The notes below the pieces were generated by a model. The model was given only the letters and a program-made list of their open reading frames with translations, made no database searches and had not been told where the DNA came from. The position numbers and the translations under genes are program-made. Positions 13,612 through 40,346 of a DNA stretch of 64,000 nucleotides are shown one piece after another (position 1 is the stretch's first letter; the number at the start of each line of letters is the position of its first letter). The stretch comes from Rhodothermia bacterium. GTDB lineage: Bacteria > Bacteroidota > Rhodothermia > Rhodothermales > JAAAOL01. Location of the stretch: positions 23,655-87,654 of the forward strand of contig JAUIDY010000009.1 of assembly GCA_030428385.1 (NCBI GenBank), in the 5' to 3' direction.

Positions 13612-15870
13612 ATGCACATGCATTCCTTATATCGTTCCCTTTCAATTATCGTCCTGCTTTGCCTGACGCCGGGCCTTGCCCTTGCGCAAGGCATTCTCAC
13701 CGGGCATGTTACCACCGATGGCGCGGCCGTGCCGTTTGCGTCTGTCGGGGTGAAGGGCACCACCCTCGGCACGGTGGCCAACATGGACGGCGTCTACCGG
13801 CTTGAACTGGCCGCTGGAAGCTACACGCTGGTGGCTTCAGCGGTGGGGTATCGCACGACGGAAGCGACGGTAACCATCACCGATGACGCTACCGCAACGG
13901 TCGATTTTGCGCTGGAAGAAGTGGTGCTCGAAAGCGACGGCATCACGGTGACGGGCACGCTCGTGGAGACGTTTGTTGCGGAATCGCCCGTGAAGGTCAG
14001 TGTCATCTCGCCGCGCTATCTGGAGAAAATCCCGACGGCGAACGTGATGGAAGTGCTCGAAAACGTCAACGGGCTCTATCAGCAGGTCGACTGTGCGGTG
14101 TGCGGCACCAACAACATCCGCATCAACGGCATGGACGGGCCGTACACGGCCGTGCTGATCGACGGGATGCCGATTATGAGCAGCCTCGCCACGGTCTACG
14201 GGCTCAACGGCATCAGCCCCGGGCTCATCCAGCAGGTCGAGGTGATCAAAGGGCCGATGTCGACGCTCTATGGCAGCGAAGCGATGGGCGGCGTCATCAA
14301 CATCATCACCAAAAACCCGCGCCTCGCCAACACGGTGTCGGTGAACACCTTCGGCACCAGCGACGCCGAGTATGCGATGGACCTCGGCGTGGTGCCCACA
14401 CGCGGGCGGCTGGCGACGCTGCTCTCGGGCACGCTGTTTTACAACAACCGCTTCCTCGACGACAACGCCGACGACTTCGCCGACCTGACGCTGAATACCC
14501 GCGCCTCGCTCTTCACCAAAGCCTCGCTGAGCGACCGCAACGGTCTGCCGCAAGCCGACCTCTCGGCGCGGTACTATTACGAAGACCGCCTTGGCGGGAC
14601 GCAGGGGTTTATCGACGCGTTTTCGGATGATTTGCGTGGCTCGGACCAGTTGTATGGCGAGACCATTCGGACGCACCGCGTGGAAGTGGTCGGGCGCTAC
14701 CACCTGCTTCCGCGTGAAGGCGTAAAGCTCGACGTGGCGTTTAACCACCACGACCAAGACAGCTATTACGGCGCCGACAGCTACCAGGCCAAACAAACCA
14801 CCGGCTTTGCCCAACTGACGTGGCCGATGCGCTTCGGCAGCCGCCACTCTACGCTGCTGGGCGGGGCATTGCGGGCGCAGCGCTACGACGACAACACCGT
14901 CGCCACGGGTACCTTCAACGAAGCAGGCCAGGAAATCGCCAACAACCCCGACGATCGGTTCATCCCCGGCGTGTTTGTGCAGCACGAATGGGTAACATCC
15001 GAGGCGGTGCGGCTGCTGGCGGGGGCTCGCGTTGATTATCAGCAAGACTACGGCCTGATCCCATCGCCGCGCCTGAGCATGAAGTACAGCCCCAGCGAAA
15101 ACACCACCCTGCGGCTAAACGGCGGCACCGGCTTCCGCATCGTCAACCTGTTCACCGAGGATCACGCCGCCTACACCGGCTCGCGGGCTACGGTGCTACT
15201 GGAAGACCTTGAGCCCGAGCGCTCGGTGAGTGGCACCGCCAGCCTGCGCCACATCCTTCCGTTCGGCGCGAACCCGCTGACGGTGGATCTCGAAGGCTTC
15301 TACACGTATTTCACCAACAAAATCGAACCCGACTACGAACAGCCCGGCTTCATCGTCTACCAGAACCTCGACGGCTCGGCGACAACGCGCGGCGTCTCGC
15401 TGACGGTTTCGCAGTCGTTCACGCGTTTGCCGCTCACCTACACCGTGGGCGGGACGCTGATGGACGTGTTTGTGGATGACGACGCCGGCACGCGTGCACC
15501 GCTGGAATTCGCGCCCGACTTCCAGGGCGTGGCGAACGCGTCCTACCAATTCCCACGCGGCTGGGCAGTGGACTACACGATGAACCTGACCGGCCCGATG
15601 AAGATGCCCGAGTACGACGCGCCCTTCGAGCGCCCGTCGACGTCGCCGACGTTTAGCCTCCACAACCTACAAATCACCAAAGACATCCGCCTGCCGGAAG
15701 GCGCGTTGTTGCAAGCCTACCTCGCCGTGGAAAACCTCTTTGGCTACACGCAGGCCGCGCCCCTCATCGACCCCGCCAACCCGTTCGGCCCGCACTTCGA
15801 CACGGCGTACGTCTACGGCCCGATCCACGGGCGGTGCACGGGCGTCGGGCTCCGCGTGACGCGGCGGTAG
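13612..15870 (+). CDS. TonB-dependent receptor with N-terminal carboxypeptidase-regulatory-like domain
   Basis: Signal peptide, a CarbopepD_reg-like segment (GHVTTDGAAVPFASVGVKGT...GYR), a plug domain (IEVIKGPMSTLYGSEAMGGVINIITK), and a long barrel. Confidence 0.88.
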   Translation: MHMHSLYRSLSIIVLLCLTPGLALAQGILTGHVTTDGAAVPFASVGVKGTTLGTVANMDGVYRLELAAGSYTLVASAVGYRTTEATVTITDDATATVDFALEEVVLESDGITVTGTLVETFVAESPVKVSVISPRYLEKIPTANVMEVLENVNGLYQQVDCAVCGTNNIRINGMDGPYTAVLIDGMPIMSSLATVYGLNGISPGLIQQVEVIKGPMSTLYGSEAMGGVINIITKNPRLANTVSVNTFGTSDAEYAMDLGVVPTRGRLATLLSGTLFYNNRFLDDNADDFADLTLNTRASLFTKASLSDRNGLPQADLSARYYYEDRLGGTQGFIDAFSDDLRGSDQLYGETIRTHRVEVVGRYHLLPREGVKLDVAFNHHDQDSYYGADSYQAKQTTGFAQLTWPMRFGSRHSTLLGGALRAQRYDDNTVATGTFNEAGQEIANNPDDRFIPGVFVQHEWVTSEAVRLLAGARVDYQQDYGLIPSPRLSMKYSPSENTTLRLNGGTGFRIVNLFTEDHAAYTGSRATVLLEDLEPERSVSGTASLRHILPFGANPLTVDLEGFYTYFTNKIEPDYEQPGFIVYQNLDGSATTRGVSLTVSQSFTRLPLTYTVGGTLMDVFVDDDAGTRAPLEFAPDFQGVANASYQFPRGWAVDYTMNLTGPMKMPEYDAPFERPSTSPTFSLHNLQITKDIRLPEGALLQAYLAVENLFGYTQAAPLIDPANPFGPHFDTAYVYGPIHGRCTGVGLRVTRR

Positions 15871-15878
15871 ACAGGCAG

Positions 15879-17150
15879 CTATCTCCCTCGCCGTGCCAAC
15901 AGGCGTTCGGGGTAAAAAACCGCCTGGATCAGGTTGTATTCCAGTTGGCTGAAGGCGAACCGCTTTCCTTCTACCTCGAAGAACGCATTCGGATACCAGC
16001 GGAGATTCGTCCGCAGGATGAGGAATTCGTCGGTCTTGCCGGGCAAGATGTCCCAGCCAAACGTAAGGCCCGGATTTATTTTGGTGGCGGTTAAGGCGGT
16101 GTGCCCGAGGGCATCTTCTTCGTCATATTCCACCCGGTCGTAGGCCACGTTGAGGCCCACGTACGGCGCAAAGCCGGTGAAATCGAACAGGAACTTGTTG
16201 ACCTCAAACGCCAGCGAGGTTTTCTGAATGGTTTGGGTGACGCCGTAGGCCGCATTCTCGAAGCGCGGATTCCGAAACGAGAAGGCCGCAAACACCCCCG
16301 CTTTGTTGAGTTGATAGCCCAACGCGAGGTCGAAGTACGGATCGGAGGCCTGCTTCTCGTTTAAGAAGGCGAATTCATCCGTGTTGTACTCCGACGCCGC
16401 CAGGCTAAACGAATTGGACGGCCCCGCCCCGATGAAAAAATTGCCCCGGCGGCTGGCATGGGACCCCAGCCGAGAAAACGTGCCATAGCTGTTCCACCGT
16501 TCCGTAGTGGCTGGGTTGCTGCTTGTGGATCGCTCCATTGCATAGATGATCCCGAACTGCACGCTGAAGGAAGGCGTTTTGATGGTTTCAGCATGGGTGC
16601 GCGACAGGGCATAGTCCCACGTGTGATCGGGGTAATAGCTCACCCCCAGCCGGGCCGCCACTGGCCCCACGCCATACAGCACCCCGGCATCGGGCACCCA
16701 GACAAAATTCTTCTGGTACACCGGCTGGTCGTCTGCGGGCTTGACGATCTGCTTAAAATCGAGGGCCGACCAACTGAGGCCGACATACGGACGGAGTTTT
16801 TTCTCCCGGAATGCCCACGGCAAAAACCGCGCGCCCGTCACCGCCGCATGCGTCAACGCATAATCCGTGGTTTCATTCGGCGAAAGCTGGTGCTGATACA
16901 GCGGGAACGACACGTAAAATTCCCCATGCCCCCAGAAATGAAAGCCGCCCCAGTAGAGCATGGCGTTCATCGAGGCGGGATGTTCAAAGGCAATCGATTC
17001 GTTGTCGGAAAGTCGTTGGCCGGTAAACGAGGGGAAATAGCTGCCGCCCACTTCGAAGTAGGTCTTGGCAAAATCGAGGCGGGTGTGTTCTTGGCCCAGG
17101 GCCGTCATAGCCTGCATGCAGAGAAGCAGCAGGAGCATTCCTTTTTTCAT
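15879..17150 (-). CDS. Outer-membrane beta-barrel-type hypothetical protein
   Basis: Signal peptide MKKGMLLLLLCMQAMTALGQ and an aromatic-rich alternating pattern. Convergent with the TonB receptor, with only 8 nt between the stops. Confidence 0.55.
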   Translation of the reverse strand: MKKGMLLLLLCMQAMTALGQEHTRLDFAKTYFEVGGSYFPSFTGQRLSDNESIAFEHPASMNAMLYWGGFHFWGHGEFYVSFPLYQHQLSPNETTDYALTHAAVTGARFLPWAFREKKLRPYVGLSWSALDFKQIVKPADDQPVYQKNFVWVPDAGVLYGVGPVAARLGVSYYPDHTWDYALSRTHAETIKTPSFSVQFGIIYAMERSTSSNPATTERWNSYGTFSRLGSHASRRGNFFIGAGPSNSFSLAASEYNTDEFAFLNEKQASDPYFDLALGYQLNKAGVFAAFSFRNPRFENAAYGVTQTIQKTSLAFEVNKFLFDFTGFAPYVGLNVAYDRVEYDEEDALGHTALTATKINPGLTFGWDILPGKTDEFLILRTNLRWYPNAFFEVEGKRFAFSQLEYNLIQAVFYPERLLARRGR

Positions 17151-17628: not shown

Positions 17629-18489
17629 TTAGCCCGACAGCAGCGCAACGAGTTCGACCTTATTATTGACGCCCGCTTTTTTATAGATGTTGGAGACGTG
17701 TGTTTTGACGGTGGGCACGGAGATGAAGAGCGCTTCGGCGGTTTGTTTGTACGTCGCTCCTTTCACGAGGTGCTCGATCACTTCTTTCTCCCGCTCGGTA
17801 AAGCCGTAGTTCTTCAGTTGCTGGTCTTTGACGGTGTTTGCAGGCTTAAAAAGGGATAAACGCTGCATGTCATCCCAAATTTTCCCTCCGGCCAAGACGA
17901 TAAACAACAACGGGAACGTGAAGCCGATCCGGCTCTCAAACCCCCTGTTTTCTGCGAAATACGTTGCCGCCAACGAAAGGGGCAGCACAATCAGGCAGGC
18001 AAGCGCCGTCATGCGCTCGACACGTTCCCGGTGCGCCATCCGTGCATGCGGCGGGGTTTTCCGAATGAGGATCATCGCATAAACGACCGAGAGCCCCAAA
18101 TAAATGGCCACCACATATTGCATGATGCGCAGAAACCCCCACCCATAACCGATAAGAACGAGGGCCGCCAGCACCACGCCCAGTGCCACCATAGCCTGCC
18201 GCATGCGTGGCCCCACAGTGTGTCGCCGCTCCGCCCAGGTGTTCAACACCGTAGCCAGCCCCACCAGAATCATGGTGATCAGAAGAAAGGTGTTGACCGC
18301 TTCGGCCGCTTCGGCAAAGGCTGCAAAGTAGGTTAGCGTCAAGGCCACAATAAGCAGCAGCAGCGCACCCGTTAAAAAGAGGGTTTCCCACGTCTCTAAC
18401 TTGCGGGAATAGCAGATGAATCCAAGAAAAAGGGCAACGATGGTGAAGGTATAGGCCGCTATCAGAAGAATAAGTTCTAGGACTTCCAT
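17629..18489 (-). CDS. Membrane-embedded (about 7 TM) LuxR-family transcriptional regulator
   Basis: About seven hydrophobic helices are followed by a LuxR/GerE HTH (FTEREKEVIEHLVKGATYKQTAEALFISVPTVKTHVSNIYKK). Confidence 0.8.
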   Translation of the reverse strand: MEVLELILLIAAYTFTIVALFLGFICYSRKLETWETLFLTGALLLLIVALTLTYFAAFAEAAEAVNTFLLITMILVGLATVLNTWAERRHTVGPRMRQAMVALGVVLAALVLIGYGWGFLRIMQYVVAIYLGLSVVYAMILIRKTPPHARMAHRERVERMTALACLIVLPLSLAATYFAENRGFESRIGFTFPLLFIVLAGGKIWDDMQRLSLFKPANTVKDQQLKNYGFTEREKEVIEHLVKGATYKQTAEALFISVPTVKTHVSNIYKKAGVNNKVELVALLSG

Positions 18490-18614: not shown

Positions 18615-19061
18615 CTACAGGCGCCATTCCATATCCACCCGATCCATGCCCGGCCCCCAACCATCGGCGGTGCGCCTTATTTCAACGGCTCCAAATCGCG
18701 CAAAAAACGGAGCCGACTTCTGGCTCGCAGCAATATCAATCTCCGCCAGGCCTTGTCCTCGGCCCACCTGGGCTGCTCGTTCCATCATTTGCCGTCCCAC
18801 CCCCCTTCCCCGCACCGTAGGGTCCAGCATAATCCAGGAAATTCGTCCGCGTTTCGCCTTGGCATGAACCTTCAGGCCGTACGCTCCCACAACGGCCTCG
18901 TCAAAAACACACACGGTATAAAAGCCTGGGTTGGAATCCAGGAATTGCGCATACTCGCTACGCTCGTTCGGCGCAAAATAGGCCGGACAGTTGGCATCGA
19001 ACACGCCAAGGCACGCCGCACGGTCGGCAGGCGCAAAAGAGCGAAAGGAAATAGCAGGCAT
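18615..19061 (-). CDS. GNAT-family N-acetyltransferase
   Basis: Start re-set to MPAISFRSF. Acetyl-CoA motif A-like VRGRGVGRQMMERA. About 148 aa. Confidence 0.75.
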   Translation of the reverse strand: MPAISFRSFAPADRAACLGVFDANCPAYFAPNERSEYAQFLDSNPGFYTVCVFDEAVVGAYGLKVHAKAKRGRISWIMLDPTVRGRGVGRQMMERAAQVGRGQGLAEIDIAASQKSAPFFARFGAVEIRRTADGWGPGMDRVDMEWRL

Positions 19062-19136
19062 GGCAACAGCAGAAAGGGAAGCCACCAATCTACTCCAACA
19101 CCCCACGGCAACAAAGCACGGATGTCGCCAAACGGC

Positions 19137-20468
19137 CTATGCCCGCAGCGGCTCGCCAAACTTGGTGTCGATGGTGATGCCGAGGTCTTTGAGCATGGCG
19201 GTAGGCAGCGTGCCGCCGGCGAAGATGAAGACGTAGTCGTTGGGAAGGGTGTGGCTTTCGCCCTCCGCCCCGCGATAGGTTACCGACGCCTCTGTGATTT
19301 CGGTGAGGTTGGTTTCACGCAAGAAGTTGATGCGCCCGTTCATGATGGCATCCTCGATGCGTTCCTGATTGAGCGGCTTGAGACGGCTGAACTTGGCCTT
19401 GCGGTACGACAGGCGCACGTCGTTGCCCGGCTGTTCGCTGAGTGCCAGCGCGGCCTCGATGGCGGAATCGCCGCCGCCCACTACGGTAACACGACACTGC
19501 TGATACTGGTCGGGCTCCAGCAGCGAATACGCGACGTTGGGGCTGTTTTCGCCGGAAACGCCCAACTTGCGCGGGATGCCGCGCCGCCCGATGGCGAGCA
19601 CGATGCGGCGGGTGGTGTAGGTAGACTGGCTCGTGCGTACGACAAACAACCCATCTCTCCCTCGCTCGGCCCCTTCAAACATTTCGCCGGTACGGATGTG
19701 CGCATCGACGTTGGTTTGGGCAATGATGTCCTCCCAGGTTGCAATCAGGTCTTCCTTCGAGATCTGCTTGAACGTAAGCTTACCATAACCCGGCACGTGA
19801 ATCGGGAAGGTCATCACCAGCTTACGGCGCGGGTAATACCGCACGGTCCCGCCGATGTCTTCTTTCTCGATGGTGACAAACCGCAGGTTGTGGTGCAGGC
19901 AGTTCAACGATGCCGCCAGCCCCGCCGGGCCACACCCCACAATCAACACATCGTAGGCGTCGTCGGGCGTCCGCTTTTTCTCTTGCACAATACCTTCGAC
20001 ACACTGCCGCGCCTGCTCGAAGGCGTTGCGGATCAGCCCCATCCCACCTAGTTCGCCCACCACGTAGATGCCATCCTCATTCGTCTCGAAGTTTTCCTGG
20101 ATGCGGGGAATATCGACGCCGCGCTTCGCCGTACCCAGCACCAGTTGAATGGCCTCTACGGGGCACGAGCGTTCGCAGAGACCGTGGCCCACGCAGTGCG
20201 TCGCGTTGATCGTCACTGCCTGCCCCGCGATGAGCCCCAGCACGTCTTTTTCGGGGCACACCGCCATACAGTTCGCCGCGCCAATACAAATGTTGGGATT
20301 CACGACAGGGTGTAGCGACGCCGGTTCGGCCCCGCCCTGCGCCTGTACTTTCTCAAGGGCGGCTTCCGCCTTGCGCTCGGCCTTGCGGTGCTTCAGGTAA
20401 TAGGGCAGCATAAACACCAGCACGAGCAGACCCGCCACCAGCCAGATGAGTGTCGTTTCGTCCAGCAT
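19137..20468 (-). CDS. Membrane-anchored ferredoxin-domain / FAD-NAD(P)-binding oxidoreductase (thioredoxin-reductase-like fold, no CxxC disulfide)
   Basis: Start re-set to MLDETTLIWLVAGLLVLVFML. The longer ORF would overlap the upstream gene; the ATG sits in a TGATG overlap at 20466-20470. One N-terminal TM helix followed by KHRKAERK. Two ferredoxin-type motifs, CIGAANCMAVCP and CVGHGLCERSCP. GxGxxG motifs DVLIVGCGPAG and VTVVGGGDSAIEAA. Confidence 0.8.
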   Translation of the reverse strand: MLDETTLIWLVAGLLVLVFMLPYYLKHRKAERKAEAALEKVQAQGGAEPASLHPVVNPNICIGAANCMAVCPEKDVLGLIAGQAVTINATHCVGHGLCERSCPVEAIQLVLGTAKRGVDIPRIQENFETNEDGIYVVGELGGMGLIRNAFEQARQCVEGIVQEKKRTPDDAYDVLIVGCGPAGLAASLNCLHHNLRFVTIEKEDIGGTVRYYPRRKLVMTFPIHVPGYGKLTFKQISKEDLIATWEDIIAQTNVDAHIRTGEMFEGAERGRDGLFVVRTSQSTYTTRRIVLAIGRRGIPRKLGVSGENSPNVAYSLLEPDQYQQCRVTVVGGGDSAIEAALALSEQPGNDVRLSYRKAKFSRLKPLNQERIEDAIMNGRINFLRETNLTEITEASVTYRGAEGESHTLPNDYVFIFAGGTLPTAMLKDLGITIDTKFGEPLRA

Positions 20469-22126
20469 CAGAAGCTCCACCACAGGCTGGTGTTGAGGGC
20501 GACGTTTCGCAGCGACGCACCTTGCTGCACCCGCACCTGGGTGCTCGATTGCAACCGACGGCGCAGCGGCACTACCACCTGCACCGACGCAGCGTGTGTT
20601 ACGAGCGGAGCCCGCGAGAGCGTGGTGGTGCGCGCAAACTGGTACTGCACCCGCGTCCGCAGCTTCTGATACCGATGCGTCACGCCCGTGTTGATAAAAA
20701 GCGACGTGCCCCGGTCCGCGTCCCAGTAACTGACCATTGCGTTGCCGCCCAACCCCCCGATGCCGAGGTCGGGATGCTGAATATAGCCGCTCCATGTCCG
20801 GCTCGTAGTGGTGCCCTCGGAACGGTTCAGCGACAGGTCGCCGCCCAGCGTAGCACGGGCGATTTGCCACGTGACACCTGCGCTGGCCTGATCGCGACGG
20901 TCGGCGATGACGCGGGCGATGCGCCAGATGCTGTACGGTCGCCGCACCTGATACCGACCGCGCAGGTGTAGCCGCTGGGCGAGCCGGACGTTGCTGCGCA
21001 CGTAAAACTGCGACGCCACCCAGTTGCCCTCCAGCGGGTCACGGTCCACCTGGATGTCACTCCGAAGGCTCCACGCCCCAACTTGCACCCGTTGCGACAG
21101 CCCCGCAAAACGATGCGTCAGCAGGTCATTGGTGGGGCGCACTTCGTTGAACGAGACCTCGGCGCTGTAGCGTACGCCATCGCGGTCGCCCACCGCAAAA
21201 TCGGCGAAGGCAGAATAGCGCGGCATCGTCGAAGAGAACCCTTCGTTGCTGCGATCGGGCATAAACCCCACTGCCGTCCCGATGCCTGCACGGTCTCCTG
21301 CATACCGTACCAGCAAACCGTCCCAGTAGCCGCTGAACCGTTCGTAGCGGTTGTAAAACCGTCCCGCCTCCACCACGGCGTTGTGAAACGACCGGGACAG
21401 CTTGGCCTCGTAGGTCCGAAAACTCGTCGTGGGTGTGATGGCACGGCCTGAGGTGTAGCGGTAGTCGGTGCGGAGACGGGTCTGAAAGCGCAGGCCTCCG
21501 GGCAAATTGCGCACGTTGAGGTTCACGCCCAGCGACGGCGTCGCAAACGTACGCGATGTGCGGTTGGTCACTCCGTCGGTCATTCCGCGATCTCCCTGCC
21601 GGTCCGTTGTCCACTCCGTCACCGAATACGACGTATTCAGCCCAAGCAGGATACGCCCCGACACGTCCAATTCCCTTTGCCTTCGGGTTGCTGTTGCCGT
21701 ACGACGCGGCGGCACAGCATTTTGTGTACCGACATCCCGTGTCGGCACTTCGTCCGCTGGCACTACGGTCTCCGATGGTGCATCCTCAACAATGGCCGGT
21801 GGCACAGCTTCTTCCGCAGAACTGACCTGTAATTCCAGATCCATGCCCAACGTCACCGGAAACGGCGGTCCGGCAAACGTCACCACGCTGCGGTCTGACA
21901 TGCTGCTGATTACGAGAAAAGCGCCCTGCACCTCGCCGCCCATAAACACCGCCAGTGTGTCGTCCGGCAGCACCTGCTCACCCCGCCCCACATCCAGGTA
22001 GAGGTTCTGCCCGGCGATGTACGTCACCCGTGCCGGAATCCGGGCCTCCTGCGCCTGTGCCACCGATGCGCCCATCATCCCGCACAACAAAAACGCTATG
22101 TGCCAGCGGCTAATCCTTTTCACCAT
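20468..22126 (-). CDS. Outer-membrane beta-barrel-type protein (candidate porin partner of the cytochromes)
   Basis: Signal peptide MVKRISRWHIAFLLCGMMGASVAQAQ and a ~100-aa N-terminal soluble domain. This is followed by a low-complexity linker and ~400 aa of alternating amphipathic strands ending ...LNTSLWWSF (terminal aromatic OMP signature). Confidence 0.65.
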   Translation of the reverse strand: MVKRISRWHIAFLLCGMMGASVAQAQEARIPARVTYIAGQNLYLDVGRGEQVLPDDTLAVFMGGEVQGAFLVISSMSDRSVVTFAGPPFPVTLGMDLELQVSSAEEAVPPAIVEDAPSETVVPADEVPTRDVGTQNAVPPRRTATATRRQRELDVSGRILLGLNTSYSVTEWTTDRQGDRGMTDGVTNRTSRTFATPSLGVNLNVRNLPGGLRFQTRLRTDYRYTSGRAITPTTSFRTYEAKLSRSFHNAVVEAGRFYNRYERFSGYWDGLLVRYAGDRAGIGTAVGFMPDRSNEGFSSTMPRYSAFADFAVGDRDGVRYSAEVSFNEVRPTNDLLTHRFAGLSQRVQVGAWSLRSDIQVDRDPLEGNWVASQFYVRSNVRLAQRLHLRGRYQVRRPYSIWRIARVIADRRDQASAGVTWQIARATLGGDLSLNRSEGTTTSRTWSGYIQHPDLGIGGLGGNAMVSYWDADRGTSLFINTGVTHRYQKLRTRVQYQFARTTTLSRAPLVTHAASVQVVVPLRRRLQSSTQVRVQQGASLRNVALNTSLWWSF

Positions 22127-25100
22127 TGGGATGACACGAATAACACGCGTTGGATTCGTAGATGTAGCCCGGCACTTCGTCGTGATCCTCGTTTGTTTCC
22201 TGCAAGGTGTGGCAGGTCAGGCAGGTGAAGACCATAAAGTCATCGGGCTGTTGGTGGCAATCCTGACAGGTGTTCCACTCCTCATCATGTTTGCCGGAGA
22301 AAATGGGGAAGTAGTCGCCGTCGTGGTTGAAGTCGGCAGGCTGCCAGGCGTCGGGGTTATGGCAACTGAGGCACGTCGTCGGATAGCCTTGCCCGCCGTG
22401 CTCCTGCTGAAAATCGGGCTGGTGACACGTAAAACAGTCGTTTTCATCGGACGGATCGAACAGCGGAATCAAATCCGGCGGCGGCCCATGACACGCCGAG
22501 CAGGGCAGGCTGATATGCGACCCAATCAGGTCGAAGCCGCCAGACACCGTGCCATGCTCGAAAACCGCGCCTTCCCAGGTATCAACAGTATGGCATTCCA
22601 GGCAGGTGGTCGGAAAACCACTGCCGCCATGCTGGCCGTCGTAGTCCGTCTGATGACAGGCGATGCAATCGTTCTGGTCGAGCGGCGTAAACAGCGGATC
22701 GAAGGCGGGCGGTGGCGCGTGACAGGCCGCACACGGCAGCGGGGCATGCGCACCCACCAGCGCAAAGCCGTTTGCCGAGGTCGCGTGGTTGAATGTGGCG
22801 TTTTCCCAATCTTCCACATCGTGACACGTGGCGCAGGTGAATGGGAAGCCGTCCGCCGCGTGCTGCGTCTGGTAATCCGTCTGATGGCACGCGTAGCAAT
22901 CCTGGTCATCCGTGGGGTTATAAATCAGGTCGAAGTCAGGCGGTGGTGTGTGGCACTGCTGGCAATCGAGATCCTCATGCGAGCCCAGCAGGTTAAAGCC
23001 GCCTGATGCCACGGCGTGGTCAAATACTGCATCGTCCCAGGTGTCGGTGGCGTGACAATCGAGGCAGGTGGTCGGGAAGCCGGTCCCCGCGTGCTCGTCA
23101 TCGTAATCGCTCTGGTGGCAGGCAATGCAATCGTTCTGATCCAGCGGCGTAAACAGCGGCGAAAAATCGGGCGGCGGCGCATGACAGGCCGCGCAGGGCA
23201 GTGGCGCGTGCGCTCCCACGAGCGCAAAGCCATTCGCTGAGGTCGCGTGATCGAACGCAGCGTTTTCCCAGTCCTCTACGTTATGGCACGTCGCACAGGT
23301 AAACGGGAAGCCGTCGGCTGCATGCTGCGCCTGATAGTCCGGCTGGTGACAGGCGTAGCAGTCCTGATCATCCGTTGGATCGAACAGCGGCACCAGATCC
23401 GGCGGGGGGCCGTGGCATGACGCGCAGTCCAGCACTTCATGCGCGCCCAGCAGATTAAAGCCGCCTGACGACACGGCATGATCAAACGCCGTCGCGTCCC
23501 AGCTATCCGTCCCGTGACACGTCAGGCACGTCGTTGGGAAGCCACTCCCGCCGTGTTGCTCGTCATAGTCGGGCTGGTGGCAGGCAAAACAATCCTGATC
23601 GCTGGTGGGATCAAACAGCGGCACGAGGTCAGGTGGCGGGCCGTGGCACGACGCACAGTCCAGCGCCGCATGCGCACCGAGCAGATTAAAGCCATCCGAA
23701 GACGCTGCATGCTCGAAGTCGGCCCCATCCCAACTGTTGGTGCCATGGCAGGTCAGGCAAGTCGTCGGGAAACCACTTCCGCCGTGCTGGGCATCGTAAT
23801 CCGGTTGGTGGCAACTGATGCAATCGTCCTGGTTCAGCGGCTCGAACAGCGGATCGTAGCCAGGCGGAGGGCCATGGCACGCCGAACATGCCAAAGCGTT
23901 GTGCGCTCCCACCAGCACAAAGCCATCGGCCACGGTCTCGTGCGCAAATGTTACGCCTGTCCAGTCGTTGGCATTGTGGCAATCGAGGCAGGTCGTGGGG
24001 AAGCCGCCACCCGCGTGCTGGGCGTCGAAGTCGGGTTGGTGGCACGCGATGCAATCATTCACCCCATCCGGCGTAAACAACGGCGTCAGATCCGGCGGCG
24101 GGCCGTGGCACGAGGCGCAATCCAGCCCATCGTGCGCCCCGATTAAGCCGAAGCCGTTCGAGGCCACGGCGTGATCAAACGCCCCAGTCTCCCAACTGTC
24201 GATGCCGTGGCACGTGGTACACGTCGTTGGGAAGCCGCTGCCACCGTGCTGAGCGTCGTAATCCGGCTGGTGGCAGGCATAACAGTCCTGATCATTGGCC
24301 GGGGTAAACAGGGGTGTCAGATCCGGCGGCGGGCCATGACACGCAGAACAGTCCAGCGCGTCGTGTGCACCGAGCAGGTTAAAGCCTCCCGACGGAACGG
24401 CATGATCAAACGCCCCGCTGTCCCAACTCTCAGTGCCGTGACACGTCGTGCAGGTTGTGGGAAAACCACTGCCCGCATGCTCGTCGTCATAATCAGCTTG
24501 ATGGCAGGCCACGCAGTCCTGGTTGTCGGCGGGCGCAAAAAGGGGCGTCAAGTCCGGCGGCGGGCCGTGGCACGAGGCGCAATCCAGCACGTCATGCGCG
24601 CCTTGCAACGCGAAGCCGCCGGAGGCTCCCACATGGTCAAACGTGCCGCCTTCCCACGCATCTACCCCGTGGCAGCGCAGACAGGTGGTCGGGAAGCCGC
24701 TGCCGCCATGCTCCTCGTCGTAATCGGGCTGGTGACACGTAATACAATCGTCCTGACCCGACGGCATAAACAACGGCTCGTACGACGGCTCTTGATGACA
24801 CGCCGCGCATTCCAGGGTGTTGTGCGCGCCCACCAGCCCAAAGCCATTGGCAATGCCCGCGTGATCCAGCGAAATTTCGTCCCAATCCTCCACGTTGTGA
24901 CACGTCTCGCACGTGGTCGGGAAGTTGCTCCCGCCATGCTCATCCTGATAGTCGGGCTGATGACAGGCAAAACAGTCTTGGTCGTTGGCGGGCGCAAAAA
25001 GGGGCGTCAAGTCCGGCGGCGGGCCGTGGCAGTTCTGGCATTCCAGGTCGCCATGCGCCCCCAGCAGGTTAAAGCCGTCCGAAATGATGGCGTGGTCAAA

Positions 25101-27080
25101 CGCATCGCTGTCCCAGCTATCCGTGCCGTGGCAGGTGGTACACGTCGTCGGGAAGCCGCTGCCACCGTGCTCCTCTTGATAATCGGGCTGGTGACAGGTG
25201 TAGCAATCCTGATCGTTGGCCGGGGTAAACAGGGGTGTCAGATCCGGCGGGGGGCCGTGGCACGCGGAGCACGGCAAGGCGTTGTGCGCGCCGAGCAAAC
25301 CGAATCCTCCCGAAGCTCCGTCATGGGCAAATGTCGCGTCGCGCCAATCCTCGGCGTTGTGGCACGTCTGGCACGTCGTGGGATACCCCGTTCCGGCATG
25401 CGCGCCGTCGTAATCAGGCTGGTGGCACGTGAGGCAATCCTCGGTGCCGCTCGGCGCAAACAGCGGGTCGAAGGCGGGCGGCGGAGCATGGCAGGCGCTG
25501 CACGGCTGCTCCTCATGCGTCCCGATGAGGGCAAAGCCATTGGCCGACACGGCGTGGTCGAACTGCGCCTCGTCCCAGTCCTCCAGGTTGTGACACGTCT
25601 GGCACGTAAACGGGAAACCGTCGCCGCCGTGCTCATCCTGATAGTCGGGCTGGTGACACGCGATGCAGTCGTCGGGGCTGGCGGCGGCAAACAGCGGCGA
25701 AAAGTCGGGCGGGGCGTTGTGACACGCGAAACAGTTCAACACACGGTGCGCCCCCGCGAGGTCGAAGCCCCCCGACGCAGCGGCATGATCAAATGCACCG
25801 CTGTCCCAACTATCCGTGCCATGACAGGTGAGGCACGTGGTTGGATAACCGCTGCCGCCGTGTTCTTGCTGAAAATCGGACTGGTGACAGGTGATGCAAT
25901 CGTCGGTGGCGCTCGGTGTAAACAAGGGGTCAAAGGCAGGCGGGACCGTGTGGCACGCGGAGCACGGCATCGCCTCATGCGCGCCGATCAGCGCAAAGCC
26001 GTTGGCCGAGGCGGCGTGGTCGAAGACGCCTTCGGTCCAGTCGTCGGCGTTGTGGCATGTCTGGCACGTCGTCGGGTAGCCTTGCCCGCCGTGGGCGCTC
26101 GCAAAGTCCGGCTGGTGACACGTCAGGCAGTCATCATTGCCGCTCGGCATAAACAGCGGCTCAAAACCCGGCGGGGCCTGATGACATGCGGCGCAATCGA
26201 GCCCGTCGTGCGCGCCAAGCAAGGCAAAGCCATCGGCCACGCTGGCATGGTCAAACACCGCGTTTTCCCACGAGTCGAGGGCGTGGCAGTCGAGGCAGGC
26301 TGTCGGGAAACTGGCATTGTGCACGGCGTCATAATCCGCCTGGTGACACGTCAGGCAGTCGTCGTTGCCCGCGGGCGCAAATAACACATCGAAGCCGGGA
26401 GGCTCGGTGTGGCACGCGGAGCACGGCAACACGTCGTGCGCGCCGAGCAGGGCAAAGCCTGCCGCAAACGCGGTGTGGTCGAAGGGTGGAACGTCGAGCC
26501 AGGCGGTAGAGCCGTGGCAGGTGTCGCAGGTCGTGGGGAAACCGTCGGCGGCGTGCGCTACATCATAATCGGGCGTATGGCAGGCGAGGCATTCGGTGTC
26601 GAGCGGACTGAACGCCCCGCCCTCATCCGACGTGTGGCAACTCGCGCAGGTGATCTGGGCGTGCGCTCCGGTGAGCGGGAACTGGGTGCGGTTGTGCACC
26701 TCCAGCCCGTTCACGTCCAGAAAGGTCGTGGTGTTGTGGCACTCAATACACGCCTCCTCAAACTGCCCCAGATGCACGTCCACATGGCACGTCGCGCAGT
26801 TGTTGGCTTCCACCTTCGGTGCGTCGAAGCGCAGGTCGAGGTGACACGTCGCACAGGTGGTTTGTGTATGACTTCCGGTGAGCGGAAAGGTGGTCTGGCG
26901 GTTGTGGTCAAACAGCAGCGAGTCGAGCAGGGGCGTCCAGCCATCGGTGCGGTGACAGTTGGCGCAGTCGAGCCCCTCCGGCAGCGTCCCGTGCGGATTA
27001 TCCGTCCGTGCCTGTGCCTGCGCCGACATCACGCCGATGCTGAGCAAAAGGAGCGCTATGACGAAGCCTGCGTATCTCAT
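22110..27080 (-). CDS. Giant multihaem c-type cytochrome, 64 CxxCH motifs (18 tandem tri-haem modules)
   Basis: I counted 64 CxxCH by eye. Sec signal peptide MRYAGFVIALLLLSIGVMSAQAQA. The start at 27080 forms an ATGA overlap with the upstream stop; the ORF track offers an alternative start at 27095. There is no lipobox and no T9SS CTD. Confidence 0.9.
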   Translation of the reverse strand: MRYAGFVIALLLLSIGVMSAQAQARTDNPHGTLPEGLDCANCHRTDGWTPLLDSLLFDHNRQTTFPLTGSHTQTTCATCHLDLRFDAPKVEANNCATCHVDVHLGQFEEACIECHNTTTFLDVNGLEVHNRTQFPLTGAHAQITCASCHTSDEGGAFSPLDTECLACHTPDYDVAHAADGFPTTCDTCHGSTAWLDVPPFDHTAFAAGFALLGAHDVLPCSACHTEPPGFDVLFAPAGNDDCLTCHQADYDAVHNASFPTACLDCHALDSWENAVFDHASVADGFALLGAHDGLDCAACHQAPPGFEPLFMPSGNDDCLTCHQPDFASAHGGQGYPTTCQTCHNADDWTEGVFDHAASANGFALIGAHEAMPCSACHTVPPAFDPLFTPSATDDCITCHQSDFQQEHGGSGYPTTCLTCHGTDSWDSGAFDHAAASGGFDLAGAHRVLNCFACHNAPPDFSPLFAAASPDDCIACHQPDYQDEHGGDGFPFTCQTCHNLEDWDEAQFDHAVSANGFALIGTHEEQPCSACHAPPPAFDPLFAPSGTEDCLTCHQPDYDGAHAGTGYPTTCQTCHNAEDWRDATFAHDGASGGFGLLGAHNALPCSACHGPPPDLTPLFTPANDQDCYTCHQPDYQEEHGGSGFPTTCTTCHGTDSWDSDAFDHAIISDGFNLLGAHGDLECQNCHGPPPDLTPLFAPANDQDCFACHQPDYQDEHGGSNFPTTCETCHNVEDWDEISLDHAGIANGFGLVGAHNTLECAACHQEPSYEPLFMPSGQDDCITCHQPDYDEEHGGSGFPTTCLRCHGVDAWEGGTFDHVGASGGFALQGAHDVLDCASCHGPPPDLTPLFAPADNQDCVACHQADYDDEHAGSGFPTTCTTCHGTESWDSGAFDHAVPSGGFNLLGAHDALDCSACHGPPPDLTPLFTPANDQDCYACHQPDYDAQHGGSGFPTTCTTCHGIDSWETGAFDHAVASNGFGLIGAHDGLDCASCHGPPPDLTPLFTPDGVNDCIACHQPDFDAQHAGGGFPTTCLDCHNANDWTGVTFAHETVADGFVLVGAHNALACSACHGPPPGYDPLFEPLNQDDCISCHQPDYDAQHGGSGFPTTCLTCHGTNSWDGADFEHAASSDGFNLLGAHAALDCASCHGPPPDLVPLFDPTSDQDCFACHQPDYDEQHGGSGFPTTCLTCHGTDSWDATAFDHAVSSGGFNLLGAHEVLDCASCHGPPPDLVPLFDPTDDQDCYACHQPDYQAQHAADGFPFTCATCHNVEDWENAAFDHATSANGFALVGAHAPLPCAACHAPPPDFSPLFTPLDQNDCIACHQSDYDDEHAGTGFPTTCLDCHATDTWDDAVFDHAVASGGFNLLGSHEDLDCQQCHTPPPDFDLIYNPTDDQDCYACHQTDYQTQHAADGFPFTCATCHDVEDWENATFNHATSANGFALVGAHAPLPCAACHAPPPAFDPLFTPLDQNDCIACHQTDYDGQHGGSGFPTTCLECHTVDTWEGAVFEHGTVSGGFDLIGSHISLPCSACHGPPPDLIPLFDPSDENDCFTCHQPDFQQEHGGQGYPTTCLSCHNPDAWQPADFNHDGDYFPIFSGKHDEEWNTCQDCHQQPDDFMVFTCLTCHTLQETNEDHDEVPGYIYESNACYSCHPNGEKD

Positions 27081-28777
27081 CCGTCGCCGTGGCAATCTTT
27101 ACAGGCCATACCCATCGGGCGATACCGCACGAAGACGCTTCCATCCGAGGCCGTTTCTTCGCGGTGGCACGAGGCGCAGGTCACGTTTTGATGCGCTCCA
27201 ACGAGTTCAAACCGCGTCGTGTTATGGTCGAACGCCGCAATAACAAAGGCCTCGGTGGTGTGGCATGTCTCGCAGGTGCGCCCCGCAAACTGATCGCGGT
27301 GCGGCTGGTCTTCAGCGTGGCAACTTGCGCAGGTGGTCTCCAGTCCCCGGAATCGCTGCACCGCCTCGCCCGCCACCGTCGTCTCGGCGTGGCAGGATGC
27401 ACAATCAACCGTTGCGTGTTGTCCGGTCAACGGGAAATCCGTTGTGGTATGATCAAACGCCGCCAGGTCCCAGCCGTCGGTGGCGTGGCAATCGACGCAG
27501 GCGGTGGTGCCAGCAGCGTCAGCAAACTGATCGCCATGTGGGCTGTCTTCCGCGTGGCACGTCTGGCACGTCGTTTCCTCGAAGTCAAAGTGGGGTTCAT
27601 TGCCTGAACGGTGGCAGGCGCTGCACGGCGTGGCGAGGTGCGCGCCCGTCAACGGAAACGCCGTCGTGGTGTTGTGCGCATCAAGGTCGAACGTCACGGG
27701 CAGCCAGCCGTCCTGCGTGTGGCAGTTGGTGCAAAGCATCCCGGCTTCGCGATCGGCAAACGCGCCGTCGTGCTCATCCACATGACACGACAGGCAATCC
27801 TCGGCGTGGAGGGCGGGAAACGTGTTGCCCAGTGTCCCAGCCACAAATTCGAGGCGAAACAGGTCATCATTACGGGCCGGTTTGCCATGACACGCGGCGC
27901 AATCGAGATTCGCGTGTTGCCCGACGAGCAAGAAGCCCGTTGCTTCGTGGTTAAACGTCGCAGCATTAAACCCGCTGAGGCGGCCCCACCCGGCGGTATC
28001 GTGGCAGTTCTGACAGGTCGCGCCAAACGCCCCATCGTGCGGGTCGGCATGGCACGCCGCGCAGGTGTCAAAACGCAGGTTCTGGTATTGCACCACTTGT
28101 TCCCCGCCGATGGTCGCTTCGCCGTGGCACGAGGCGCAATCCACCGTTTGGTGCCGCCCGGTGAGGACAAACCGTGCCGTGGCATGGTCAAACTGTTCTG
28201 CGCCTTCCCACTGGGTTTCCACATGGCAGGTGGTGCAGGTTGTCGAGCTAAACTGCTTGCCGTGCGGGCTGTCGGCGGCGTGGCACGTCTGGCAGGTGGT
28301 GCCCAGGCCGAGGTACGTTTTTTCCAGCGCGTTGTGTTCACCCTTAAATTGCCGAACCTCGACATCGGTGATAAATTCGGATTGATGACAACCCCGGCAC
28401 TCCACCGTCTGATGCGCGCCTACCAGTTCAAAGCCTGTGTCGCGGTGATCAAACGCTTCAGTATCGAAGCGCAACACATCGAACGTCCGCCCGAAGTGTT
28501 CTTTGTGGCACGTCGCGCAGTTGGCGTCTACCGTCGCATGAAATCCTTCCTCGGCGCTGATGCGTGCTTCCAGTGGCGTGTGGCAATCCAGGCACCGCGC
28601 CCGGTCGATGCCGCGCTGCCCAAGGGTGTGGCACTGCGTGCAGTTGCGGATGCCTTCCAGCGCGGCGTGGGCCTGCGACAGTTCCCCCGGCGAGATGAGT
28701 TGGGCCTGCGCCGCGTACGTCCCCACCGATCCCATCAAAAAAAGAAGGATTAAAAAATGTGGGGTGAAGGAACGCAT
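27077..28777 (-). CDS. Multihaem c-type cytochrome, 20 CxxCH motifs (c3/c7-like repeats)
   Basis: Start re-set to MRSFTPHFLILLFLMGSVGTYAAQAQ. I counted 20 CxxCH by eye. Recurrent F(D/N)H-x3-5-F-x-L-x-G-x-H-x4-C-x2-CH units. Confidence 0.9.
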   Translation of the reverse strand: MRSFTPHFLILLFLMGSVGTYAAQAQLISPGELSQAHAALEGIRNCTQCHTLGQRGIDRARCLDCHTPLEARISAEEGFHATVDANCATCHKEHFGRTFDVLRFDTEAFDHRDTGFELVGAHQTVECRGCHQSEFITDVEVRQFKGEHNALEKTYLGLGTTCQTCHAADSPHGKQFSSTTCTTCHVETQWEGAEQFDHATARFVLTGRHQTVDCASCHGEATIGGEQVVQYQNLRFDTCAACHADPHDGAFGATCQNCHDTAGWGRLSGFNAATFNHEATGFLLVGQHANLDCAACHGKPARNDDLFRLEFVAGTLGNTFPALHAEDCLSCHVDEHDGAFADREAGMLCTNCHTQDGWLPVTFDLDAHNTTTAFPLTGAHLATPCSACHRSGNEPHFDFEETTCQTCHAEDSPHGDQFADAAGTTACVDCHATDGWDLAAFDHTTTDFPLTGQHATVDCASCHAETTVAGEAVQRFRGLETTCASCHAEDQPHRDQFAGRTCETCHTTEAFVIAAFDHNTTRFELVGAHQNVTCASCHREETASDGSVFVRYRPMGMACKDCHGDG

Positions 28778-28858: not shown

Positions 28859-29506
28859 CTACGGGTGTTCGGCGGGAATGCGGGCAAGGGCCTGGGTGGC
28901 CATGCCTTGCATCTTGGCGTCGGCGGTCTGCGCGGCGACGGGCTCCCACCAGCGACGGGCCTCCGCGAAACGCCCCTGGTTGGCATGAATCGCGCCGAGG
29001 TTATACATGGCCGAGGGGTCGTTCGGGTGGTGCACAAGGAGCGTTTCCATGGCGGTTTGCGCGTCGGTCCAGCGGTTTAGCAAGCCATAGGTCTGCGCCA
29101 GGTCCAGCCACGCCTGCTGGTCGGTGGGGCGCAGCGCCACGTACTGCTCATAGGCCGCCACAGCCTCTTCGAGTTGGTGCCCGTCATGCTGCAACCGCGC
29201 CAGTTTGAGCCACTCCTCAGCGTTTTCAGGTGTTTCATCGGTGGTTTGCTTCAGGCGCTGCAACTCGGCGTGTACGTTGGGCGAGACGTTGCTTTCATCT
29301 GGCGTAAACACCGTCCGCGGCGTGTGCGTGGGGATAAACGGCGACGACGGGGTGCTGTCTGTCGTTCGGACCACATGCGGTGTCTGAGCCGTGGTTTGCG
29401 ACGGCACTACCGTCTCTGTATGCGATGTGGCAAACCAGAAGTAACCAAGGACCAAGACCAGCAACAGCAGGCCGACGAGGATGAGCGGACGTTGCAAAAA
29501 CGACAT
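28859..29506 (-). CDS. N-terminally membrane-anchored TPR-repeat protein
   Basis: TM helix LILVGLLLLVLVLGYFWF, then a low-complexity linker and about 3 TPR units (EEAVAAYEQYVALRPTDQQAWLDLAQTY...). Confidence 0.75.
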   Translation of the reverse strand: MSFLQRPLILVGLLLLVLVLGYFWFATSHTETVVPSQTTAQTPHVVRTTDSTPSSPFIPTHTPRTVFTPDESNVSPNVHAELQRLKQTTDETPENAEEWLKLARLQHDGHQLEEAVAAYEQYVALRPTDQQAWLDLAQTYGLLNRWTDAQTAMETLLVHHPNDPSAMYNLGAIHANQGRFAEARRWWEPVAAQTADAKMQGMATQALARIPAEHP

Positions 29507-29516
29507 GGCGGTGGGG

Positions 29517-30389
29517 TTAAAAGATCCAGGTATAACCGAAGGCGATGGCCACCCCTACGTGAACCAGCAACACGACGAGCAAAATGAGCGCCAAGGGCAG
29601 ATGAAGCACATGCCAGTAACCAAAAAGCCGCTGAAACGGCTGCATCACCTGTTGCTGCTGGGTGAGCGTCAGGCTTTTCAAAAACAGAGGGATGACTTCT
29701 GAAACGGTATCGGGAGTAACGTCTTGTTCATAAAGCCGCGCTTCGAGACGACGCCCCAGGTTGCGGCGGCCCATGTCGAACCGGAGCGCCCGAAAGAGCG
29801 CGGCGCCAAAACCACTGACGGCAGGCATCTGCATCTCGCGGAGCAGCCCCTCCACATCGCCACCCTTCCATTCCAGCGCGGCGCTGATCTGCGCGGCCAG
29901 CGCCGCTTGCTGCTTGCGCAACTCATTTAAGGAGTAAAACACCCCGTTGAGGGTCTTCGGGATGTGCACATACACGTAGCGCCCGAAGACGCCACTCACC
30001 ACCACAATGGTCATGCTCCAGAACGCAATCGCCACGATGTTTCCCACCTTAAACGTGGTATGCAGCAGAATAAAATACGGCCCCAGCGTACAGAGGAAGA
30101 TGTGAAACGTGAGCCAGGTACGCAGCTTGCCGAACCGATGCAGCCACGTCCACCGCTTGCGCAGGCTGTACGAGGACACCCCGACGATCATCATCAGCGT
30201 GCCGAGAATGCCGAGCCCCTGCCCCACCAGCCCCGATGGCTTAAAGGCTTCGTGGGCGGTCATAAACGGACGCTCGGCCAGCGGCGTCAGGTAATACTGG
30301 AAGCCACCCCAAAGCGGCAACACCGCCAGTGCTACCCACAAAAGCGGAAGCACTACACGGCGACGAATCAAAACCATATCAAACGGCAA
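29517..30389 (-). CDS. Five-TM membrane protein with two H-x13-H helices (candidate di-haem cytochrome b-type electron transfer subunit)
   Basis: His96/His110 lie in predicted TM3 and His263/His277 in TM5, each pair exactly 13 residues apart. A ~115-aa basic loop separates TM4 and TM5. The start is TTG at 30389 or ATG at 30377. Confidence 0.6.
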   Translation of the reverse strand: MPFDMVLIRRRVVLPLLWVALAVLPLWGGFQYYLTPLAERPFMTAHEAFKPSGLVGQGLGILGTLMMIVGVSSYSLRKRWTWLHRFGKLRTWLTFHIFLCTLGPYFILLHTTFKVGNIVAIAFWSMTIVVVSGVFGRYVYVHIPKTLNGVFYSLNELRKQQAALAAQISAALEWKGGDVEGLLREMQMPAVSGFGAALFRALRFDMGRRNLGRRLEARLYEQDVTPDTVSEVIPLFLKSLTLTQQQQVMQPFQRLFGYWHVLHLPLALILLVVLLVHVGVAIAFGYTWIF

Positions 30390-40340: not shown

Positions 40341-40346
40341 GAAGGT

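Follow-up and report, generated by a model that had tools for sequence, protein, structure and literature searches.

Porin-cytochrome clusters of the PCC3 type were defined by comparative genomics in Alpha-, Beta- and Gammaproteobacteria (for example Slit_0867-0870 of Sideroxydans lithotrophicus ES-1), and comprise a porin, an "extracellular" cytochrome (median 34 haems, maximum 63), a "periplasmic" one whose median is 21 haems, and an inner-membrane protein of ~300 aa with five transmembrane (TM) segments, an SGxxG motif on TM4 and W-x3-H-x13-H motifs on TM3 and TM5; their cytochromes have internal repeats and only ~26-30 residues per haem, and were proposed to act as molecular wires (He et al. 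2017, Front Microbiol 8:1584). For the porin of the L. cholodnii PCC3, 22 transmembrane regions were predicted. The proteobacterial PCC3 periplasmic cytochromes carry a tri-haem repeat of ~66 aa, with 21, 24 or 27 haems in Gallionellaceae, and AlphaFold models of Gallionellaceae PCC3 cytochromes have been called "long and mostly linear". Here we analyze a six-gene operon in a 64,000-nucleotide stretch of a Rhodothermia bacterium (contig JAUIDY010000009.1, positions 23,655 to 87,654; henceforth "the window"), whose genes are co-directional on the minus strand and whose fourth gene encodes a 64-haem cytochrome c. We put at roughly 55% the probability that the product of this gene is the long wire of many haems at the distal end of a porin-cytochrome conduit of PCC3 type.

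By gene content and motifs the operon matches the PCC3 cluster: both have a barrel, a cytochrome of the ~21-haem class (20 CxxCH in the window), a larger repeat-rich cytochrome (64 haems in the window) and a ~300-aa inner-membrane protein with SGxxG and two W-x3-H-x13-H motifs, and in both the cytochromes use only ~25-27 aa per haem. To this set the operon adds a TPR protein as well as a membrane-anchored, NAD(P)-binding oxidoreductase of the 4Fe-4S/FAD type, and its cluster belongs to Rhodothermales and relatives in the FCB group whereas PCC3 was described from Proteobacteria. An earlier note on this DNA, made from the letters, dealt with the cytochrome itself; the PCC3-type operon that we read from the sequence, absent from that note, is its main context.

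Giant cytochromes of this family have been noticed before. "Undescribed" giants of Saprospiraceae and Paludibaculum metagenome-assembled genomes (MAGs) were reported with their haem motifs counted and a function in extracellular electron transfer (EET) or as a capacitor speculated upon (mSystems 2024, PMC11495043). These belong to the same family, since a 112-haem Bryobacterales protein (P0017) and Saprospiraceae proteins of ~100 haems are 30-36% identical to the window protein over 98-100% of its length; that account describes neither the anatomy of the modules nor their ligands nor the surrounding operon, and the family is not described in the peat EET preprint or the MHCscan paper. The 64-haem protein is a Rhodothermales member of a cross-phylum lineage of giant modular cytochromes, noticed before but undescribed.

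The longest open reading frame (ORF) of the region (22110-27095, minus strand; 1661 residues) holds the cytochrome gene, for which the likeliest start is the ATG at 27080, giving a gene at 22110-27080 and a product of 1656 aa. The protein has 64 CxxCH motifs, 128 Cys (all of them in those motifs), 128 His and six Met, at a packing of ~26 residues per haem; no CxxxCH or CxxxxCH variants occur in it. The His outside the motifs number exactly 64, that is, one to each haem. The translation opens with a signal peptide (27009-27080, minus strand; MRYAGFVIALLLLSIGVMSAQAQA) that has no lipobox Cys and is followed on the mature side by RTDNPHG, so that cleavage of the signal peptidase I (SPase I) type probably falls between AQA and R. 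Two of the six Met (positions 6 and 23) lie in this signal peptide.

The core of the protein is an array of 18 tandem tri-haem modules with 54 haems (22389-26543, minus strand; residues 185-1569 in ORF numbering), precisely the span that the earlier note had divided into 18 collinear modules. Cutting five residues upstream of every third CxxCH gives 17 modules of 77 aa and one of 76 aa, and no module of 78 aa, so that the note's range of 76-78 aa narrows to 76-77; the MAFFT alignment of the 18 needs a single one-residue indel, and pairwise identity averages 59% (range 41-87%). Three CxxCH and three extra His are invariant in 18 of the 18 modules, the extra His standing in the contexts F-D/E/A-H, G-A/T/S-H and, for the third, xxH-G/A, eight residues past the His of the third motif; P3, W15, GF, L, DC, Q and D are further invariant residues. 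When the profile of the modules was extended to 45 rows by three-module windows of homologues (38-60% identity), the Cys and His columns remained invariant or at least 90% conserved. Both alignments bear out the claim of three CxxCH and three invariant non-motif His per module, a regularity far greater than chance would give, as well as the claim that Met is not conserved, none of the six Met falling in a conserved module column.

Long tandem repeats are easily misassembled, and the array might in principle be an assembly artefact, or the gene be decaying. We give this explanation almost no credence. Between modules the DNA diverges by 22% or more, and third codon positions are only 40-48% identical; even the closest pair (modules 15 and 17), with 87% identity in amino acids, reaches only 78% in DNA and 48% at third positions, from which we conclude that the repeats are old and selectively maintained rather than produced by assembly. 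The frame is intact over 4,971 nt, with 128 of the 128 Cys in CxxCH, and intact homologues lie on megabase-size contigs. Tandem Repeats Finder reported periods of 231 bp and 462 bp with 72-76% matches. The longer period forms a two-module higher-order repeat (window 22599-23594) in which modules 14 and 16 are 74% and modules 15 and 17 are 87% identical, and it implies that two cassettes were duplicated together at least once, around modules 14-17.

The ends of the protein had been set apart from the array in the earlier note, with six CxxCH in the N-terminal and four in the C-terminal region; these counts stand, although the ends appear to be divergent tri-haem units and a cap rather than another kind of domain. 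The N-terminal region (26544-27008, minus strand) has seven non-motif His for its six haems, the modules 54 for 54, and the C-terminal region (22110-22388, minus strand, including the stop codon) three for four. This regional imbalance vanishes once the repeating unit is reframed to begin at the "third" His, as H-x8-CxxCH-x11-H-x12-H-x4-CxxCH-x17-CxxCH. In the N-terminal region the spacing NPH35-x8-C44 is that of the core and DVH108-x7-C116 is one residue shorter, and a three-module hidden Markov model (HMM) also matches the N-terminal regions of homologues; on both grounds we take the six N-terminal haems to be two divergent units (26544-27008). The C-terminal region reads as one further unit of three haems with a lone haem behind it as a cap (EDH...CYSCHPNG). 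At the level of sequence, then, the 64-haem cytochrome is made of 21 homologous tri-haem units and one cap (21 x 3 + 1 = 64), a 3n+1 rule.

The rule extends well beyond this protein. Of the top 120 homologues, which span 34-115 haems and 926-2826 aa, 95 have a haem count of 1 mod 3, where ~40 would be expected by chance, and 105 have the C-terminal cap as C[YLF]xCHPxG. Since the 3n+1 count holds across homologues, the tri-haem cassette is the unit by which the family grows and shrinks; judging from these sequences, the end-pieces at the N and C termini are conserved, and the length of the central array varies among relatives by three-haem steps. Some homologues of Saprospiraceae type (P0015, P0016, P0048, P0078 and P0119) show another architecture, in which a domain like the C-terminal cap recurs internally many times (FPIYSGxH...W..C..CH...F.C..CH.NPETD..H...GY.Y....CL.CHPxG) and gives a larger super-repeat, unlike the pure tri-haem array of the window protein.

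These 120 homologues have medians of 2.05 His and 25 residues per haem, and one distal His per haem is a property of the whole family. Because each haem has its own conserved distal His and there is no conserved Met, bis-His electron-transfer haems are predicted, and because no ligand is spare or missing the 64-haem cytochrome offers no candidate catalytic haem. All-bis-His low-spin ligation, which the earlier note had predicted from its ligand count, is well supported by the 64 non-motif His for 64 haems and by the median of the homologues, and we regard that prediction as sound.

The most obvious comparison is with GSU1996, likewise a single-chain "nanowire" of concatenated tri-haem units of ~70-80 aa and likewise matched by the Pfam profile Cytochrome_C7 (PF14522), and the earlier note had likened the modules to c7/c3-type units polymerized in that way. 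GSU1996, a periplasmic protein that is not known to be encoded alongside a porin, has four units with 12 haems, whereas the window protein has 21 units with 64. A true c7-domain polymer homologous to GSU1996 would gain from the three haems per ~77-aa unit and from the match of PF14522 to the 64-haem cytochrome (E = 2.8e-81, 267.7 bits against a gathering cut-off of 24.8, over 11 stretches), a profile that is broad, covering "c7 and related"; Cytochrom_c3_2 also matches, as does PF22113 (MtrC/MtrF domain II/IV) at 147 bits. More specific searches pointed elsewhere. NrfB was the only match of a three-module query among PDB sequences (E = 1e-4) and the best match of the 45-row profile against all PDB sequences (E = 1.4e-5, over only ~100 residues), and no PpcA, c7 or GSU1996 chain appeared in that profile search, even at E <= 10. 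Alignment by hhalign to PpcA gave a probability of only 16.7% and left the distal His out of register, with c7 His47 facing a non-His column. Ligands and motifs here come in the order H, CxxCH, H, H, CxxCH, CxxCH, and no cyclic rotation gives the c7 order, H, H, CxxCH, H, CxxCH, CxxCH. The domains of GSU1996 have a His-Met haem, for which the window protein has no conserved Met. We therefore consider homology to GSU1996 improbable and set aside a c7 polymer on the profile search, the hhalign result and the ligand order. Of the earlier analogy the idea of a concatenated tri-haem wire remains a fair likeness and the proposed HMM comparison did give matches to PF14522 and Cytochrom_c3_2, while kinship with c7 in the family sense, which neither the PDB search nor hhalign detected, is a weak analogy that the sequences lead us to reject.

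The partners encoded around the cytochrome complete the comparison with PCC3. First in the operon is an inner-membrane protein of 286 aa (29517-30377, minus strand), predicted from motifs and hydropathy to bind two b-type haems; it has the motifs W92LTFH-x13-H, W259HVLH-x13-H and SG132VFG, and four to five TM segments by crude hydropathy, the number of helices being approximate. No Pfam family matched it. The motifs recur in four related loci and in Emticicia, and the nearest relative of the protein is in a Rhodothermales MAG (63% identity). There follows a membrane-anchored TPR protein of 215 aa (28859-29506, minus strand) matched by Pfam TPR families, among them, marginally, TPR_CcmH_CycH (PF23914; 44 bits against a cut-off of 42); it has a homologue in the cluster at three related loci (L001, L002 and L003) and may be an apocytochrome or assembly chaperone that helps very long apocytochromes to mature.

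The third gene (27077-28777, minus strand) encodes a 20-haem cytochrome c of 566 aa with a signal peptide, 20 CxxCH and 44 His, and with the repeat C..CH-xxDxPHxxQF...C..CH...W...FDH..F.L.G.H....C..CH. Its kinship by domain with the 64-haem protein, already seen in the earlier note, is supported by several FDH-x-F-x-L-x-G-x-H-x4-CxxCH units. We presume it to be a periplasmic or barrel-inserted partner. Across related loci (L001-L084) this smaller cytochrome has 17, 20 or 23 haems (3n+2), and so also changes by three-haem steps.

Downstream of the 64-haem gene lies that of a 552-aa protein without a Pfam match (20468-22126, minus strand; C-terminus ...LWWSF) that AlphaFold2 and Foldseek point to as an outer-membrane beta-barrel. 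The model, built with 53 homologues, has a mean predicted local distance difference test score (pLDDT) of 85.2 and begins with a signal helix, to which are joined a small beta domain (30-101), a disordered Pro-rich linker (105-148) and ~22 long antiparallel strands (154-551) with pLDDT above 90; all of the top 50 Foldseek matches in the PDB were outer-membrane barrels (ushers, TonB-dependent transporters and porins). On this model the protein is presumably the porin, or sheath, of the conduit. The counterpart in Gemmatimonadota is longer (814 aa; L002, 3430-5874) and has an AMIN domain; this domain there, and the N-terminal beta domain with its ~45-residue linker here, may serve as a periplasmic or peptidoglycan tether.

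The last gene (19137-20468, minus strand) encodes an oxidoreductase of ~443 aa with two [4Fe-4S] clusters and FAD and NAD(P) binding (Fer4_10/Fer4_21 and Pyr_redox_2/3, the latter of the pyridine-nucleotide-disulphide-oxidoreductase fold); at its N terminus a hydrophobic helix precedes a basic stretch, and an export signal is lacking. The operon is translationally coupled and its last four genes overlap: the stop of the 20-haem gene and the start of the 64-haem gene share ATGA, the barrel gene has its ATG 17 nt within the 3' end of the 64-haem gene, and the barrel stop and oxidoreductase start share TGATG.

A barrel that sheathes a periplasmic multihaem wire and passes electrons to an outer cytochrome is the logic that this operon would have in common with MtrCAB. 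All haems of NrfB/MtrA-type chains are bis-His, as predicted for the window protein, and NrfB is its nearest sequence relative of solved structure. The differences are many. On the 20-haem neighbor the MtrA/DmsE model TIGR03508 reaches 65 bits (cut-off 192); the 64-haem protein is matched neither by it nor by TIGR03507, and NCBIfam yielded nothing above cut-offs. MtrC and OmcA are lipoproteins with barrel domains I and III, whereas the window protein lacks a lipobox and its AlphaFold2 model (modules 9-11, mean pLDDT 82.5) has no beta domains, a pattern of short helices recurring in each module instead. MtrB has 26 strands against ~22 here, is not related in sequence, and is outside the top 50 Foldseek matches; and where MtrCAB takes its electrons from a quinol dehydrogenase of CymA type, the operon has none of that type as input. 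Membership of MtrCAB or Geobacter Pcc was set aside, the NCBIfam models being below cut-off or absent and MtrB not being among the top structural matches of the barrel.

Both the cytochrome and its neighborhood recur widely. More than 1600 proteins match the 64-haem cytochrome at E <= 1e-10 (8000 candidates scored), from Rhodothermales, Gemmatimonadota, Eisenbacteria, Acidobacteriota, Saprospiraceae and Ignavibacteria, and the gene set recurs at four loci in different phyla, its occurrences including Rhodothermales, Gemmatimonadota, Bryobacterales and Bacteroidota. A profile of the inner-membrane protein, with one genome per species, found at least 584 loci, the best 80 all in the FCB group or Gemmatimonadota. 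We counted neighbors at the 40 loci where the flanks of the gene for this protein reach 6 kb or more in both directions: a homologue of the 17-, 20- or 23-haem cytochrome was present at all 40, two cytochromes of at least 13 haems at 36, and the iron-sulphur (FeS)-FAD oxidoreductase at 36, in each case encoded on one strand with the inner-membrane protein. The second cytochrome spans 13 to 112 haems across related loci.

Two hosts are in culture. In Rubrivirga sp. IMCC45206 the cluster is chromosomal (L020), and in Emticicia oligotrophica DSM 17448 a complete cluster lies on the 100-kb plasmid pEMTOL02 (L087, record 78197-90781), in the order ccsA, inner-membrane protein, FeS-FAD (Fer4/FAD) protein, 23-haem cytochrome, 40-haem cytochrome, 538-aa barrel candidate and GW-domain protein; the plasmid location suggests that the conduit is horizontally mobile. 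In Bacteroidota clusters a fused ResB-CcsA of ~1020 aa (System II cytochrome c biogenesis) adjoins the conduit genes (L004, 20518-23580; L087, 6818-9904). No ResB-CcsA gene was seen near the operon in the window.

How electrons would enter the conduit is suggested by the first and last genes. The H-x13-H pairs of the inner-membrane protein, together with its near-obligate pairing with a cytoplasm-facing FeS-flavoprotein, lead us to propose an NAD(P)H entry like that of NOX/FRE systems. Fre-MsrQ is a two-component NOX-like precedent. With it and with ferric-reductase-domain systems the operon shares the pairing of a cytoplasmic NAD(P)H flavoprotein with a membrane protein whose haem-b sites are two H-x13-H, the pair serving a periplasmic acceptor; it differs in that the reductase is a flavoprotein of thioredoxin-reductase fold with two [4Fe-4S] clusters, the acceptor chain has 84 c-type haems, and the inner-membrane protein lacks a Pfam match.

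The inner-membrane protein is also 32-34% identical over ~110 residues to proteins of proteobacterial plasmids, whose clusters are without a porin. On plasmids of Methylophaga pinxianii (L085, 7073-10850) and Qipengyuania citrea (L086, 6929-10773) we observed a porin-less module whose four genes encode a FAD_binding_6/NAD_binding_1/Fer2 reductase, an inner-membrane protein of this kind with two H-x13-H and SGFVG, a cytochrome c with seven haems, and a DUF1622 protein, adjoining heavy-metal and ccm genes; it looks like a minimal NOX-like system delivering electrons to the periplasm. That a homologous inner-membrane protein sits there between a flavin reductase and a heptahaem cytochrome lends independent support to the NAD(P)H input side.

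We can now state the preferred reading, a distal wire of a PCC3-type conduit, in full. The inner-membrane protein would convey electrons through the inner membrane by way of its two haems b, and the path would run from NAD(P)H to FAD, FeS centers, two haem b, 20 haems, 64 haems and an external acceptor. The 64-haem chain would fold into a rod with its haems closely spaced and a length of tens of nanometers, ~50-60 nm if scaled from the ~100 Å (~10 nm) quoted for decahaem MtrA, and cassette number would set the reach of the rod. One conserved end would dock to the 20-haem cytochrome in or at the ~22-strand barrel, the two termini being docking and terminal sites. Along such a wire electrons would travel between the envelope and redox partners at a distance from it, insoluble or polymeric ones. 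With NAD(P)H as input the route would be outward and independent of quinone, disposing of electrons or delivering them.

Several points weigh against this reading. The likeness to PCC3 is drawn from gene content and motifs, and in the proteobacterial archetypes the extracellular cytochrome has repeats of ~47 or 23 aa and haem counts that do not step by three, whereas the window protein has 77-aa units and 3n+1 haems. A structural search with the three-module AlphaFold2 model gave no neighbor. The 64-haem cytochrome has no lipobox and no C-terminal domain of the type IX secretion system (T9SS), its C-terminus being a haem domain; it carries a signal of SPase I type only, which by itself would not account for export across the outer membrane. 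For PCC3 itself, the inner-membrane protein was likened to ferric-reductase/cytochrome-b di-haem proteins and proposed to be a quinone-active cytochrome b (He et al. 2017), and in Sideroxydans ES-1 both PCC3 clusters are weakly expressed without induction by Fe(II). Finally, outward flow is thermodynamically more natural given an NAD(P)H input, but both the direction and the input are read from gene neighborhood and domain content.

The question of export bears directly on a second explanation, that the protein stays in the periplasm as an electron store (a "capacitor" of up to 64 electrons) or as a wire filling that space, and does not reach outside. This would suit a signal that is only of Sec type with neither lipobox nor T9SS tail, and such a role has been speculated upon in the literature; moreover, in proteobacterial PCC3 it is the periplasmic cytochrome that has the tri-haem repeat (~66 aa) and the three-haem steps. 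A rod of 64 or more haems would nonetheless be far longer than the periplasm, for spanning which the 20-haem cytochrome of the operon is already of the size proposed, and the 64-haem gene is translationally coupled to the gene of the barrel. Variation from 13 to 115 haems, beside a near-constant partner of 17, 20 or 23, also fits a distal, environment-facing element better. We consider a periplasmic store unlikely. Export by T9SS was rejected as a solution, on the grounds of the C-terminal haem domain. The organism itself does have a T9SS, as shown by three consecutive proteins at 35374-42815 (minus strand; 755, 900 and 822 aa) that have T9SS sorting domains at the C-terminus and contain repeats of FG-GAP, LVIVD or cadherin-like type.

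The direction of flow bears on a third explanation, the original PCC3 proposal of an uptake conduit, by which extracellular Fe(II), Mn(II), minerals or cathodes would be oxidized and electrons led inward, by way of the cytochrome-b-like inner-membrane protein, to the quinone pool. PCC3 is found in iron and manganese oxidizers and the model was proposed there (He et al. 2017), and multihaem wires are intrinsically bidirectional. On the other hand, PCC3 is down-regulated on Fe(II) in Sideroxydans ES-1. The FeS/FAD NAD(P)-binding partner accompanies the inner-membrane protein at nine tenths of the loci counted (36 of 40), and reduction of NAD(P)+ by electrons from Fe(II), inward against the membrane potential, would be thermodynamically unfavorable. 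All-bis-His haems are usually of low potential, which we also count against uptake. For the window operon we doubt the inward direction about as much as we doubt a periplasmic store.

The distal-wire reading could be carried further, to a self-contained, quinone-independent "NOX-to-nanowire" conduit in which the 20-haem periplasmic wire would lie inside the 22-strand barrel and whose ~50-nm single-polypeptide rod projects from the cell, with its reach tuned by three-haem cassettes (13 to 115 haems), and which would be a widespread, unrecognized means of EET in the mostly aerobic or facultative FCB group and Acidobacteriota. We offer this extended version only tentatively, and think it a good deal less probable than the distal wire as such.

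Downstream of the operon, a GNAT acetyltransferase gene (18615-19106) separates it from that of a 286-aa protein (17629-18489, minus strand), two genes downstream, whose N-terminal half is a multi-pass membrane region and whose C-terminal part has a LuxR/GerE helix-turn-helix; this could be a membrane-bound regulator. Two further ORFs of the window have no Pfam match, one of 423 aa (15879-17150, minus strand) that adjoins a TonB-dependent receptor gene (13612-15870) and one of 327 aa (47839-48822, minus strand).

Giant cytochromes of 50 to more than 100 haems keep appearing in soil, sediment and wastewater metagenomes, where they are listed only as "undescribed". This locus supplies an anatomy for them, namely the tri-haem cassette, the 3n+1 rule and the end-pieces, and a context, a six-gene trans-envelope operon with a plausible NAD(P)H input; the cultured hosts make function open to experiment. 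The 77-residue unit would be attractive as a building block for engineered protein wires. If these proteins are single-chain wires of ~50 nm, they would surpass in length every other monomeric biological conductor known, and extracellular electron transfer would be extended to phyla not regarded as electroactive.

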